64,000 nt of DNA from Escherichia coli (GTDB lineage: Bacteria > Pseudomonadota > Gammaproteobacteria > Enterobacterales > Enterobacteriaceae): the NCBI RefSeq assembly GCF_030013595.1, contig NZ_CP122772.1. One strand, 5' to 3'. Below are positions 27,001-33,000 of this stretch, one piece after another. Within the stretch, counting starts at the first letter, position 1, and every line of letters begins with the position of its first letter. Position numbers: made by a program.

Positions 27001-30000
27001 ATACAGAGATTAATCATCTCGAAGTTAAAATCGTTGAGAGAGTCGCAAGAAGAGCATCAAAGCTAAGGTTTTCTTATAAAATAGATAAAGAAAGTGAGGG
27101 CTTAGATATCAGAATACCATACGGTTTCAGAGGATAATTGCATAAACTTCGTTTTGAGATCGAAATGAGGTAGCTCATGGCTCAAATCTATCAATTCCCT
27201 CAGGGGGAAGAACGTGCTAAATTCAGGAAAGAAATTGCCAGGGAGCGTAAGAAACGTTTTGCAGTGAAAACAGGGAGCACTTTTGTTAAGTGGCTTGGCT
27301 GGGGATGGTTTTATCTTCGTCTTCTTGTCGCGAGTGTTTTACATTTTATCTTTGTTTTTGTGTTAGCCATTCTTGGTGCGTTTAAATGGGCTGTATTCTG
27401 GCTGGGTGGTATTTTGTGTGTCATCACTTGGTATCATCTCGATCACCAGTTATGGACGCCACAAAATCTGACTATACCGGTGATTACGGCAACCTGGATT
27501 TTGGGACTGCTGGCTGAGCCTCTGATGGAGCTGCTCAACAAAACTATGCCTTGGCACAAGTTACTTGTTCCCGAACCTGCGGACGAAAGCACCGAGAACA
27601 GTAGCGAGATAAGCCAGCAATGATGCTACTCAGCAGTTATGCCAGACCCTGCCTTTTCACTGCGATGCAGGATAGGGCAAACGCCGCAAAATGACGTCTC
27701 TGACGCCATTCTGCAACGTTTGCCCGGTGACCTACAGTCGGTTCTTGTCGGAGAATTTTATGGAATATCAGGTGAGAGAGTTTATTAACGAAAAATATAC
27801 TAAGGCTGTTAATATTTTAAAGGATAACCTTAAAGAAAACTACCATGTTTTTTATGGTGTGAGATTAATTGAGATTCTTTTTCCAGCCAGTGAGTATGGC
27901 ACTGATGCTTTCTTTAAAGAGTTTGAATTAATTAACAGTGTAATACTTCCATTGGTAATCTTTGATTTAACACAACGCAAGCCAATGATGATTATCAGCT
28001 TCGATAAGATACTTGATGCCAGTTTGTTGGAAGGAACAAATATTGTGGTTCTTGAATGTATTACCCTCGCTGATCTTCTGACAAATGATAACATTGATTT
28101 TTTATATAAAAGCTAAGAATCTCCTTTCAGTTTAAATTTTCTGCTTGGGTCGCCAAGTGTTATTGAGTCTACTTCATGTGAGTAATGAAGTGTATGATAA
28201 TGTGCTGGATTTTTCAGATAATCAGGGAGTGATATTATTTTTCCGCAGCTAATTGCAGAATGAAACCAGTTGCGGAATGTCTCGCTATTTGTTTTTAATG
28301 CATCTTTTGGAATAAATACTAATTTTATGTTGGAAACGTAATTAACAGGTTTAAGTATGGTATGTCTGTTTTGTCCAAAGTCTTTTAAAGCATCTGTAAA
28401 CTCGTATTCAGATGTATAAATTCTAGTTTCTTTATTAAGGGTTTTGATCTGGAATATGAATGAATAGTAATTCTTATCAAGTATTTCAACAGTGCCTGGG
28501 TCTATACTCAGTTGTTTAATAACAGCTTCTCTTTTATACTCTAACCCGTCTCTGACTGATTGATATACAACCATTGCTGCATGATGTGAACCACCACTGT
28601 TTGAAGCTACATATCGGTCAAACCAAGAATAATATTTAACATTAATAGGGTTGCGTGGGGGGAAACCTTCATGCTCAATGTGCCATATATTATCTTTCCA
28701 GTCTAAAATATTTTCAGCTTTCAGATTTTCGGCAGGATACATCCCCTCTCCCCAAGAATAAAGATCTTTGAACCAACTACCATTTATTACCTTGCTCCAT
28801 CCACAACCGAAACTTTTCGAGTCAGTCAGAGATTGTATTTTGTTAAAATCGAAGTCCAGAGAGTGTTTCTTATCTGTAGTTATTAAGTTGCTCAGAATTT
28901 CAGCCAGATCCTTGTCAATATATCTCAGTGAGTATTCGCTAAATATATTTTCAAGCTGCAATATGGTGTCTGCATCTGCTGTAGGTTTAAATAACTTAAT
29001 ATCAGCAAGATTTTTAAACGTTGCTGTGGTCAGTTTATGGTGATCTGTCAACCTGTAGAGGTCACAGATCAATTCGGTTAAATATCTCATAGATTTTCAT
29101 CCATGCTTCTATGGTTAGAATTTTGCAGACTCAAGCAACCAGTGATTCTTTATGTTTTCATCCTGGCTGTTGTACATCGCCAGCGCCGCTTTGAGAACGG
29201 TTGTTTTGCTCTGCCCTGTTCTGATAGCTTCAGCTTCCAGTATGTCCTCAAAATGGGCTGAAAGTCTGAAGTTCATCAACTTTGGTTTACCCACTACAGG
29301 CGCTCTGGTAGCGCCGGAGATAAAACGCGCGGTTTCTGCGTTTGTTGCTGGTTGCTGAGATTCATCGATGTTCGGACGGTTTAGTTTTAAAGCCATGACA
29401 ATTTCCCCTTGTACGGTATGCATTAATAGTAAATATCATACTATCTTTATATTATCTTTACAATGTAAATATTTATAGATGGTATTGATATTACTATAAA
29501 ATTCCAATTTCCTGCGCCACTAGTTCAATCTGTGCTTTCGCTGTTGAAAGGCTTGATGCCCGGCTAACGTCATGTACCCCTGCCCCTTCATTACAGGCGC
29601 TTTCATACACATCCAGCTCGGATATCCGGGTTTTAAGAGGTTGAATCCAGATGTTGTCCGAACGCAGTAATTTATCCAGATCAATGGCCGCTTTTCTGTG
29701 GCGGGGTTTCGCTGAGTTGATTCTGGTGAACAGCACCCACGGTACCAGGGCTGCGTTAGCTTTCTGAGCGATGCGGATTTTCTCTGTAACACTGGTCAGA
29801 GTTTCGCTTTCGAAATCAGAGGACGGCTTAACCAGTGTTACCACGATATCTGATACTGTCAGGGCGCTACGGAACTCCTGGCTGTCGTGGCCGGGGCAAT
29901 CGACAATGAGGACTTCACACAGCTTACTAAGTCGCTTAATTTCATTGCTGACGTTTCCGTAAGCTGCATGAACCGGGATAGTGAGTAAGCCGTTATCTGT

Positions 30001-33000
30001 CCGCTTTTCGTTCCAGCTCAACAGATCGTGGTTTTTATCTGTCTTGAGGATAATTACCGACTTACCTTTATTGACCAGCATTGAGCCTGTGTTAGCCACG
30101 TAGGTGCTTTTGCCTACACCACCCTTATCTGATACGACAAGCAAGATTTTACCCATTTCAGAATTCCTCTCTTTATGACGTAAAGATTATGTAAAGACTG
30201 TCTTATCTTTACAGTGTGTGTTGTTCGTAAAGATTATTTTGTCTTTACAGTGTCTTTATATTACACATGATTTACCATGTAAAGCACAAATAAAGATAAG
30301 CTTGTATTTATGTTATCTTTATTATGTAAAGATTTGTGTGTATTTATAGTGGCTTTACGTGGTAAAGCTGAGACCGTCTTTACATCATCTTTATGTTGTA
30401 AATTTCTGTGTGACATTGTCACTTTATGGCCGGAGGTCTGTTTTCTGGTTCTTTTTGAGTGTGCCTTTCCTGTCGATCTACTTTCTGGTGCATTTTGGGT
30501 ATAGTGGTGTAACCTTATGTGAACCGGTTCTGTAATATGACTTCAAATGTACCAACAAGCTTTGTCCGCGCTTATCTGAGAGCTTCAACAGCAGAACAGG
30601 ATGCTTCGCGTGCCCTGGAAACTATCGAGGCTTTTGCCAGGGAAAGAGGCCTGATCATTTGCAGCTACTATATTGAGAATGAATCCGGCACCCGTCTTGA
30701 GCGCCCGGAACTTTTTCGTCTTCTGAGAGATTGCCAACAAAATGACATTTTGCTTATCGAGGATGTGGACAGACTTTCCCGCCTGTCAGGGGAAGACTGG
30801 AATACGTTGAAGAAAATGATCCGGCAGAAAGACATCCGGGTTATGGCGGTGAATGTGCCGACGACATGGATTAATTCTGGTATGAGTGAGTTTGACAGCC
30901 GGTTGTTTGCAGCCATTAACGATATGCTGCTGGATATGCTGGCCGCAGTTGCCAGAAGGGACTATGAACAACGTCGGGAACGCCAGAAACAAGGGATAGA
31001 GAAAGCAAAGAAAGACGGCAAATATAAAGGGCGTAAACCTAATCAAGCCAGACATGATGCAATTATCAGGTTGATAGAAAGCGGTAGCTCCTGGACACAG
31101 GTACAGAAAGTGCTAGGGTGCAGCCGTGGCACAATCAGTAATGCGCTAAAACGTAAAACCGGGCAGAAATCCAGTAAGTAGAGGAGTAGGGGGCTAATAT
31201 ACCTGCAAGGCAGGATATTAACTCAGGAGATTGGGTGTGTGGTGTTTAGTCAATGCATTTGAATATTGTAACTAAAATATGTTTTTATTAAAGGCCGGAG
31301 GTGGTTAGCCCCCGGCCTTAGTTACGTTTCCGCCATCAGCCCATCAACTGGAGAAGGTAGCGAATCAGTTCAAGAAGTGAGATTAGTGCCCCCAGAACGA
31401 TGATTGCTTTATCAATCATCCGTTTACTCCATTATATGGAGCAGACTCCCGATACTTACTCTTACACTGCCTGTCATATCGGTTGTTCTTCGGTGTTGGT
31501 TGAAGACAGTTCCACTCCAGCCAGAGCCACCAACTCAGGGCTGGAAAACACAAAAAAGCCCGATTACCCGTCGGTTTTTTTTTGTGCCTGTCGTTTGGCT
31601 GTACTTCCGTTTTTTCCCCTTCATTTGAGGGATTTTTCTTTCATTTTTTGTTGCAGTCAATACCGCTGATCGCGTTGGCCAACAGAACGATGCCGTTACC
31701 GGCATTATCATGAATCCCATTTTTTCAGTAAGTTGCAGCATACAAAGTAATTAAAAAAACGTCATTTTTTGTTGATGGATGCAGTAGCGGTGGTGTGCTA
31801 CGTGAAATCTGGGAAATGCTGGCGGGTAAGTGACTCAATTTTTAATCTCCGCACCTGTTTTTTTGGACGTGCCAGCAATTATGACCTGAAGCAGAGGTGC
31901 GTCCGACAACAAAAATTCCGATCACCAGAAAAAATTTTGGACATTTTTTCCGATAATGCATTTTTGTCCAGGGGGATATGAACTACAGGGCAGGGCGAAA
32001 AGGAAGCGGTTATCTTGATCGATAGGAATTTAAATCCCAAAAAGATTAAAAAAACACCCAAAAACGGATGTTTATTCGACACTGCCTGCGTGCCATGAGT
32101 GCACCGCCATCAATTAAATGGATCTTATCGAGTGATACTGTATATCACTGATGGTTTTTTACTCCATTCCCCTGAAAATGGACGCAACTTCCCCGATGCG
32201 GCTCTCAGCCGCACACCCGCTGTTGCGCCAGTGGCTCATGCATCAGGACCAGCTCTGTCAGACGGTAGCCCCGCTTCAGCCCCGTAAAACGCATCTGACA
32301 TCCGCACAGGATGCACTTTAGCGGGTCAACCTTCAGTAACCGCTGATACATCCCTCTCCACCTGATTTGCATCGCCGTCTTTCTCACCGTCTCCGTTATG
32401 ACGTACACAACATCTTCCAGTAACCGGCGCTTTACCGGACTCAGGAAACCGTAGTACCTCACCATACGGAACCCCTTATCCGCCACATGCCAGGAGAACC
32501 TTTCCATAAACTCATCACCACTCATCACCAGGTATTCTTCCCGTTTTGTCCGGTGACTGTTGTAACGCAGACCAATTTCATCCTGACCAGCATAGTGCTC
32601 CAGACGGCTCATCGGCACCGGCGGTTTTTTCAGGTAAGAGCCGAAGTACACCGCCACATGTGTGGCGTTATCCATCACCCGGGATACGTTGACATTCCAG
32701 CCCCGCCGGTAATGACTGTCCAGGAAGCGATTCCAGTCCCGTCTGCTGCTTCCTTCAACTGCCAGCGCATCCGGTATCACCAGCTCCGGGTATTTTCGTG
32801 ACAGTAACCACGTTATCCTGTAACGCCACATGCTCATCACCTTACGGGCGTAAAAATGAAGGTTTTTCCAGGTGTGGTCTGGTGTCACGCCGCCGGCCGT
32901 TGTCGACAGGTGAATGTGCGGATGCCACTGCTGGTCACGTCCCCATGTGTGGATGACCGTGAATATCCCCGGCACCACATCTGCCTGGCGGCAGATTTCC

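Follow-up and report, generated by a model that had tools for sequence, protein, structure and literature searches.

A probable type Ib partition cassette with its own box arrays, and a separate resolvase unit, in the IncX1 segment of an Escherichia coli plasmid

On a 64,000-nucleotide stretch of the Escherichia coli contig NZ_CP122772.1 (assembly GCF_030013595.1; the whole stretch is referred to as the window), the gene of a ParA-type ATPase and the gene of a serine resolvase are transcribed away from each other, and much of the DNA between them is filled with short repeats. This locus raises the question to which of the two neighbors the repeats belong, i.e. whether they serve as centromere and operator of a partition system, as recombination site (res) of the resolvase, or as both. 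Our analysis points to a partition cassette consisting of parA (also named yafB), the small gene yafA and two clusters of TCTTTA boxes. The resolvase appears to form a unit of its own, with a probable res that lies in the same intergenic region, outside the repeats.

The resolvase gene (30537-31181, plus strand, 214 amino acids; annotated start ATG 30537, reading frame also open from 30519) is divergent from parA (29494-30156, minus strand), which encodes a partition ATPase of 220 amino acids, and a spacer of 380 bp (30157-30536) separates the two. On the minus strand, parA is followed after a gap of 97 bp by yafA (29115-29396), for which the open reading frame and the annotated start give a predicted ribbon-helix-helix (RHH) protein of 93 amino acids. 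Gene positions, the order of parA and the small RHH gene, and the divergent resolvase are as they had been given in a sequence-only reading of the window.

Box arrays in the par locus

The parA-proximal part of the spacer (30157-30420) has a GC content of 30%, compared to 47% across the window. Five exact copies of the 8-mer TCTTTACA/TGTAAAGA are found in the spacer and one at 29455, and these six are all copies in the window; with up to one mismatch allowed, the spacer holds nine. In 30157-30420 there are 12 exact copies of the 6-bp core TCTTTA/TAAAGA, whereas 2000 dinucleotide-preserving shuffles of this same AT-rich segment contained 0.34 copies on average and never more than 3; elsewhere in the window, no 250-bp stretch holds more than three. 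When degenerate boxes that keep TTTA are included, 17 boxes in both orientations lie in 30170-30393, and an 18th, weaker box (TAAATT, 30399-30404) was recognized by eye only. Boxes of the form (G)TCTTTA(C)/(G)TAAAGA(C) thus make up a main array of ~235 bp (30170-30404, both orientations), the probable centromere and parA operator. Their spacing of 11, 11 and 14 bp results in a 36-bp super-repeat, of which Tandem Repeats Finder detected only an 11-bp doublet because the boxes stand in mixed orientation. The sequence-only reading had counted ten or more repeats over 300 bp, which holds for the 6-bp core and the degenerate box but neither for the exact 8-mer nor for the length of the array.

A second, internal cluster, which had been missed in that reading, is located in the spacer between parA and yafA (29430-29471) and consists of TAAATA, TCTTTA, TCTTTA and TAAATA at spacings of 14, 11 and 11 bp. 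The equivalent spacers of IncX3, IncX5, IncX2 and IncI2 plasmids hold three to five boxes. Two promoter-like matches, TTGTAA-17-TATGAT and TTTACA-18-GATAGT, are found on the minus strand of the same spacer, and we regard the internal cluster as a candidate second operator/centromere site that would overlap a sigma-70-like yafA promoter. Taken together with the layout of a metagenomic locus described below, the cluster and these matches suggest that yafA might have its own box-controlled promoter and that two binding sites flank parA.

The boxes and their cognate protein

Boxes of this type are found upstream of the homologous parA in IncX3 (locus L004), IncX5 (L005), IncX2 (L006) and IncI2 (L007) plasmids, and the IncI2 locus, with a YafA of 54% identity, has its boxes without any resolvase nearby. 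Box columns of the array are 94% identical to IncX3 and 87% identical to IncX5, whereas the columns of the spacers between the boxes are 67% and 53% identical, respectively (Fisher p about 1e-7). In two other IncX1 plasmids, pHNAH968-4 (L003) and a second one (L008), TP228-type ParF and ParG fill the same slot beside the same resolvase genes. The ParA of this parFG-type slot is identical to TP228 ParF across the displayed alignment, and the ParG hits its Pfam family with 2.9e-50. These parFG-type loci encode 14-15 ACTC/GAGT boxes together with one TCTTTA, the yafBA-type loci 3-12 TCTTTA and 0-2 ACTC boxes, and the window array itself contains no ACTC/GAGT. ACTC motifs are the experimentally defined sites of ParG, and the 20-box parH-OF array of TP228 acts as both operator and centromere, with parts that are each centromere-active (PMC3130281).

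A further locus was identified on a metagenomic contig (Logan SRR18067317, L013), in which a ParA of 50% and a YafA homologue of 48% identity are encoded 1.9 kb apart across four small unannotated open reading frames. Variant boxes GTAAATAC/GTATTTAC precede both the parA and the yafA homologue there (regions 300-450 and 2930-2990). The same contig has an open reading frame of 73 amino acids directly after parA, which shows no family match.

The joint occurrence of boxes and gene pair in IncX and IncI2 plasmids, including the IncI2 locus that keeps its boxes without a resolvase, the higher conservation of boxes than of spacers, the change of box type along with the centromere-binding protein in the ParF/ParG swap, and the contig L013 argue that the array belongs to the par module, with YafA as its cognate protein. 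The first three of these observations also support the centromere/operator role that had been proposed for the repeats. We consider it likely that the cassette as a whole is a partition system of type Ib.

The ParA ATPase

ParA shows a deviant Walker A motif SDKGGVGKST (K11, K16), an A' motif with Asp40 and a Walker B motif with Asp86, and these residues are invariant across six homologues (IncX1, IncX2, IncX3, IncX5, IncI2 and ParF). Pfam matches are confined to the P-loop families CbiA, AAA_31, MipZ and VirC1 and begin from residue 3. TP228 ParF is the nearest solved structure (4dzz; E 3e-7, 27% identity), with an alignment that runs end-to-end against the 206 amino acids of ParF, and the best NCBIfam match is NF041546 ParA_partition (E 3e-26, full length, 92 bits compared to a cut-off of 180). 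Since there is no N-terminal DNA-binding domain with a helix-turn-helix (HTH), ParA is best classified as a type Ib partition ATPase. The name 'division plane positioning ATPase MipZ' given by the Prokaryotic Genome Annotation Pipeline (PGAP) and the older 'peptidyl-arginine deiminase' are misnomers for this protein. Such misleading names are spread over hundreds of plasmid records.

The small protein YafA

The yafA start at 29396 is backed by homologues and by a GGGG Shine-Dalgarno sequence; a longer open reading frame (29115-29423, 102 amino acids) is without a ribosome-binding site. Residues 1-38 form a disordered N-terminal tail with the conserved pattern MALKLNxP...ETARFI, followed by a predicted strand (39-45, KLMNFRL), two helices (47-60 and 64-77) and an additional C-terminal helix (80-92). 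F43 is invariant in the family alignment, and N42 and R44 on either side of it are nearly so, a pattern like that of the DNA-contacting residues N11 and R13 of Arc.

Sequence searches with YafA gave nothing meaningful: neither phmmer against PDB, Pfam and NCBIfam nor a Pfam search at E <= 0.01 returned a match of note, the family profile hit CopG alone in the PDB (E 0.57, spanning the whole RHH of 45 amino acids), and homologues reached the Pfam family RHH_1 with E 0.003-0.02, which is under the gathering score. The fold was therefore argued from AlphaFold2 (AF2) models. In the monomer model, disorder extends to about residue 40 and three helices follow, and the Foldseek matches of this model are nearly all RHH proteins, with CopG (template modelling (TM) score 0.75-0.80) ahead of Arc, ParG, ParD and PutA. 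Because the RHH strand forms only in the dimer, a tandem model was built as well, in which two YafA RHH domains were joined by a linker and a matching alignment was supplied. This model reached an overall predicted local distance difference test (pLDDT) score of 84, with values >90 in the folded parts, and a predicted template modelling (pTM) score of 0.79, and it showed strand 39-45 and the helices in each half. Its top fold matches were TraY of the F plasmid, a natural tandem RHH protein (probability 1.0, E 1e-3), and single-chain Arc. The tandem model is a prediction and not a solved structure; together with the monomer model it leads us to a predicted RHH fold for YafA, with a strand and then two helices.

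Membership of YafA in the ParG family was considered and rejected. YafA has no match to the Pfam family PF09274, which the genuine ParG of L003, used as a control, hits at the value given above; hhalign of the YafA alignment against ParG gave a probability of 3.6%; and ACTC boxes are missing from the array. YafA is therefore regarded as no more than a structural and functional analogue of ParG. The label 'ParA/ParG-like' in the sequence-only reading was right in so far as a small ParA is paired with an RHH partition protein, but it does not extend to the ParG family. The YafA family is small: it comprises 75 clusters at 90% identity, and an exhaustive profile search among 1.84 billion proteins retrieved 59 representatives at E <= 1e-3 and no bridge from the family to a characterized centromere-binding protein. 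Family members with a named source in the first search come from Enterobacterales, and several are explicitly plasmid-borne.

Resolvase and candidate res

The resolvase shows hits to the Pfam domains Resolvase (4.3e-24) and HTH_7 (5.8e-7), the latter being a C-terminal HTH. Its Ser17, located in the invariant stretch FVRAYLRAST, aligns with the nucleophile of Sin, and Sin is also the nearest solved structure (2r0q, E 4e-15), followed by the gamma-delta and Tn3 resolvases. Homologues from IncX2, IncX3 and IncX5 plasmids, Providencia and Xanthomonas are 62-78% identical, and the motifs RAST, DRLSR and RRDYEQRRERQ are invariant among them.

From the last box to the ATG of the resolvase gene, ~125 bp are free of boxes and contain conserved blocks. 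Besides the palindrome GTGAC-N3-GTCAC (30410-30422) taken up further below, these blocks are TGGTTCTTTTTGAGTGTGCC (30446-30465), GGTRC/TATAGT (30487-30505; GGTGC/TATAGT in the window) and the palindrome GAACCGGTTC (30521-30530), which ends 6 bp ahead of the ATG. A 32-bp element resembling a resolvase site I (30446-30477) has TGGTTC as its left arm and a right arm that is degenerate in this IncX1 type. The blocks from 30446 onward travel with the resolvase in IncX1, IncX2, IncX3 and IncX5 plasmids and in both cassette types. Pairwise alignments place the boundary at GGTTCTTTT[T/A]GAGT: from there rightward the sequence is that of the resolvase type (X1-type in the window and L003, X2-type in L006 and L008), and all sequence to the left follows the par type. 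Related plasmid resolvases of Providencia (77% amino acid identity) and Xanthomonas (62%) are not preceded by such a par cassette or by boxes, and the layout is kept, with TGGTKY-N20-RNACCA about 75-105 bp before the start, then GGTACTGT and then (G)AACYGGTTC. The first of these patterns was found at the equivalent position in five loci. Of these matches, only the one in Xanthomonas counts as independent evidence, since the pattern had been built from related loci and the matches in L004-L006 and L010 are therefore partly circular. A search for inverted repeats returned nothing in the res-proximal DNA of the window and only the palindrome in Providencia.

Since the upstream segment follows the resolvase type and is kept in the Providencia and Xanthomonas plasmids that lack the par cassette, we place res at about 30446-30530 (~85 bp conserved with the resolvase), a location that we favor by a slight degree. 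The resolvase promoter probably lies in the same segment. By the same comparisons the resolvase and its res appear to form a modular unit that is separate from the par cassette. The earlier suggestion that the repeats are shared with the resolvase and may carry res could not be upheld, as a segment of ~85-90 bp stays with the resolvase whatever par cassette adjoins it, or none.

Alternative explanations

Could the resolvase nevertheless be the protein that binds the boxes? In favor of this, the array is placed between divergently transcribed genes, and res sites are normally located directly upstream of the resolvase gene and made up of several repeated subsites, as is the case for Tn3, gamma-delta and Sin, to which the present resolvase is related. 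The boxes would then be res or accessory sites, and the resolvase would bind the TCTTTACA repeats for its synaptic complex. We consider this very improbable, because IncI2 and L013 keep the boxes with parA and yafA and have no resolvase, the parFG-type IncX1 plasmids have ACTC boxes instead beside the same resolvase, and the Providencia and Xanthomonas homologues (62-77%) are without boxes and keep the ~85-bp segment. Parts of the parFG-type and window resolvase regions are near-identical from ~90 bp upstream through the first ~60 bp of the gene, with ~96% identity over the matched pieces. Still more remote appears a reading of the repeats as replication iterons, or as a piece of an IncX alpha/beta origin bound by Rep3/pi. 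This reading could draw on the several iteron origins of IncX plasmids and on the AT-rich nature of the region (30% GC), which is located 4 kb from rep. The plasmid's own iterons, however, are six 22-bp TGAAAGGTGGATGGGTACGCAC units (25929-26051 and 26135-26156) that lie together with DnaA boxes (two repeats TTATCCACA within 25699-25774) directly upstream of the Rep3/pi gene and are unrelated to TCTTTACA. Moreover, the box type changes with the par protein and not with the replicon, and IncI2 plasmids have the same boxes with another replicon.

Of more weight, but in our view still unlikely, is the possibility that the boxes are only an operator for YafA autoregulation, with the centromere elsewhere or absent, or that the ParA/RHH pair has another role, e.g. 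as a VirC1/VirC2-like helper of the relaxosome. Most RHH proteins act as repressors, and the boxes here coincide in part with promoter-like hexamers, TTTACA itself resembling a -35 element. An array of 17 boxes over 235 bp is, on the other hand, far above what an operator needs and resembles the 20-box parH-OF (PMC3130281), no further box cluster is present in the window, and the place of the cassette in an identical backbone slot can be taken by ParF/ParG, an experimentally proven partition pair that brings its own array. For the VirC1-like role it can be said that ParA narrowly passes the Pfam VirC1 threshold (26.9 compared to 24 bits) and that ddp (DNA-distortion) transfer genes are located nearby. 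ParF, however, scores higher on VirC1 (47 bits), and the match of ParA is for this reason regarded as generic.

Several points weigh against the reading of a partition cassette with an adjacent resolvase-res unit. Sequence alone cannot separate the role of an operator from that of a centromere, and the literature searched on IncX and IncI2 contains annotation-level mentions of the partition centromere or the small protein and no experimental study. YafA is without a significant sequence match to a characterized centromere-binding protein (E > 0.09 for phmmer and the profile against the PDB), and the Foldseek E-values of its monomer model are about 1. A scan for promoters and terminators gave 5 consensus promoter matches compared to 4.2 in shuffles; since this is no more than expected, the parA promoter was not located and both the parA and the resolvase promoters were left unassigned. 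The window copy of the 32-bp element fails the pattern TGGTKY-N20-RNACCA, its right arm being degenerate or offset by ~3 bp compared to IncX2, IncX3 and IncX5, and for this reason res may lie elsewhere in 30446-30530 or be weakened. Lastly, the IncX1 DNA makes up ~7 kb of an IncF hybrid plasmid, and the cassette might therefore be redundant there.

Proposed mechanism

For a partition cassette of this kind we propose the following sequence of events. Each (G)TCTTTA(C) box would receive roughly one YafA dimer, which inserts its beta-ribbon with N42 and R44, with about one helical turn between successive dimers. In this way YafA would coat both the ~235-bp array and the four-box site between parA and yafA to form a partition complex, and the coated boxes would simultaneously repress the promoters of both genes. 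The tail of YafA (residues 1-38, MALKL...TARFI) might recruit nucleoid-bound ParA-ATP dimers and stimulate their ATPase, and plasmid copies would be moved apart as in TP228 ParFG, pB171 par2 and pSM19035 delta-omega. The divergent resolvase would act at its own non-repeat res (about 30446-30530) and convert plasmid dimers to monomers, which would therefore provide more units for the par system to segregate.

Exchange of cassette parts

The comparison of loci also showed where yafBA and parFG cassettes have been exchanged. In two resolvase backgrounds the breakpoints of this swap fall at positions ~12-16 of the 32-bp element, i.e. within about 5 bp of its center, and all four combinations of the two resolvase types with the two par types exist. 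Next to this boundary, at the resolvase-side end of the main array, lies the palindrome GTGAC-ATT-GTCAC (30410-30422). In both cassette types this palindrome stays to the par side of the breakpoint; it is no box, nor can it clearly be assigned to res. The pattern GTGAC-N3-GTCAC, with two matches in the window compared to 0.03 expected, occurs in the IncX1, IncX3 and IncX5 cassettes and in both parFG-type loci (L003 ~2893-2905, L008 ~2843-2855); IncX2 has the one-mismatch variant GTTACATCGTCAC, and the resolvase genes of Providencia and Xanthomonas lack the pattern in their upstream DNA.

A second kind of junction is located within yafA. In the comparison of IncX1 with IncX3 (L004), parA and the tail-encoding part of yafA (about 29270-30140) show an identity of 95-100%, compared to 62-88% for the RHH-encoding 3' part of yafA, the array and the resolvase side. 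Summarized, a patch of parA plus tail with ~98% identity is set within flanks of 65-85%. On its left, the junction of this patch (~29265) coincides with the boundary between tail and RHH. A fusion at the same boundary is seen in the parFG-type plasmids, which encode a third gene past parG (L003 1494-1805 and L008 1470-1763, both minus strand). Its product combines a YafA-type RHH domain (63% identity) with an N-terminus unlike that of YafA (MDKK...LEALPEEVV...), and there is no TCTTTA box cluster within 5 kb of the gene at either locus. An orphan RHH domain, a relic and a regulator of another target are all conceivable for this product.

Because both yafA junctions fall at the tail/RHH boundary and the swap breakpoints at the res-like element, the sequences suggest a modular exchange of partition parts. 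It is conceivable, though we put it forward as a tentative and rather doubtful idea, that the par-res junction is a built-in exchange point, at which crossover by the resolvase (~30457-30462) would swap yafBA and its TCTTTA boxes for parFG and ACTC, and that together with the yafA junction it would re-sort ParA plus tail against RHH plus boxes. If true, a plasmid could change its partition-incompatibility type with its replicon untouched.

Genomic setting

The neighboring genes (Rep3/pi initiator, bis, ddp and DUF6685) and MOB-suite typing identify the surroundings of the cassette as an IncX1 backbone. Many plasmids contain 100% identical copies of the 2.3-kb region; at least 99% identity is found in 259 PLSDB records, about 1,290-1,300 records cover at least 80% of the region, and 2,758 show any match. 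One of these plasmids, the IncFIA/FIC/X1 haemolysin plasmid pP136-5 from pig E. coli, has coordinates that coincide with the window. Copies of an IS91-family transposase gene (~23964-25151, plus strand, and 32205-33392, minus strand) flank a segment of ~7 kb that encodes rep, bis, ddp, DUF6685, yafA, parA, res and a dinQ-like gene, both here and in pP136-5. The host plasmid of the segment is of IncFIA/FIC type and carries hlyCABD (about 11467-18715) and F-type tra genes. Being bracketed by IS91 copies inside an IncFIA/FIC plasmid, the IncX1 segment looks like a captured backbone fragment.

A gap of 24 bp separates yafA from the next gene in the same direction, which encodes DUF6685 (28113-29090, minus strand, 325 amino acids). 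IncX1 and IncX5 plasmids have this gene, whereas in IncX3 and IncX2 another gene stands in its place or it is missing, and pP136-5 carries it as two separate coding sequences. On the other side of the cassette, about 155 bp past the resolvase stop, lies an open reading frame for a DinQ-like type I toxin that is annotated in identical plasmids, and the Rfam model of the AgrB antisense RNA matches near to it with 70 bits compared to a gathering score of 40 (DinQ-like/AgrB region: 31336-31419, minus strand, and 31496-31583, plus strand). A homologous dqlB-agrB module of IncX3 plasmids has been described to stabilize plasmids (PMC12317039).

Significance

Publications on IncX plasmids list parA (= yafB) and the 'par-resolvase' or res as backbone genes and describe the small gene yafA as 'conserved hypothetical' (PMC3332091, PMC3630922, PMC5955891). 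Papers name 'parA' or 'parAB' only, and the RHH protein stays hypothetical in databases. Carriers of the cassette include IncX3 plasmids of the kind reported with blaNDM and blaSHV-12, IncI2 plasmids, and porcine virulence plasmids for haemolysin and F18 fimbriae. With the boxes and their protein defined, targets for plasmid-curing or incompatibility tools become available, and partition cross-incompatibility is predicted among IncX1, IncX3 and IncI2 plasmids that share boxes. The analysis further separates the resolvase site from the centromere. The understanding of the type Ib partition mechanism as such is unchanged by this cassette.

Comparison with known systems

Together with the resolvase, the cassette makes up the usual stability module of IncX resistance and virulence plasmids. 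It is of a known kind, type Ib partition, and what is newly defined here are the probable centromere-binding protein, the box motif and the two-site layout. Beside it stands a multimer-resolution system that is likewise of a known kind. As in Sin/resH and Tn3/gamma-delta, the resolvase is a small serine recombinase in which a catalytic domain at the N-terminus is joined to a C-terminal HTH, and the ~85-bp segment upstream of its gene contains an inverted-repeat element and half-site-like motifs. This length and the gene-proximal position fit Sin resH or Tn3 res. In contrast to those systems, the sites described here are candidates, and the IncX1 type of the window has a degenerate right arm in its 32-bp element. 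To our knowledge, the half-site motif TGGTTC is not familiar from other resolvase systems. A multimer-resolution unit next to an independent stability determinant is also seen in the par region of RK2/RP4, where the parCBA resolvase has its res in a divergent intergenic region next to parDE. There the neighbor is a toxin-antitoxin pair, and not a ParA/RHH partition cassette as in the present locus.

On the partition side, the cassette resembles TP228 parFGH. Both have a small type Ib ParA with a downstream gene for a small protein made of a flexible N-terminal tail and an RHH domain, in both parA is preceded by short degenerate boxes in mixed orientation (about 20 in TP228, where they act as operator and centromere; PMC3130281), and the TP228 cassette type occupies the exact same slot beside the same resolvase in some IncX1 plasmids. 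The two systems differ in that ParA is 27% identical to ParF, YafA is a non-ParG protein with an additional C-terminal helix, the boxes are 6-8 bp long (TCTTTA(C)) at 11 or 14 bp rather than 4-bp ACTC at 8 bp, and a second box cluster is located between parA and the RHH gene. Arrays at more than one site are known from par2 of pB171 (ParA and the RHH protein ParB), in which 6-7 bp repeats in parC1 upstream and parC2 downstream function as centromere and operator, and from pSM19035 delta-omega, in which heptad parS sites precede the delta as well as the omega promoter and have these two functions. With boxes upstream of parA as well as of yafA, the two-site layout of the yafBA cassette is in its architecture closer to these two systems than to TP228. 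It differs from them in the sequence, spacing and number of the boxes, and in that its second site lies between the two genes and not after the operon.

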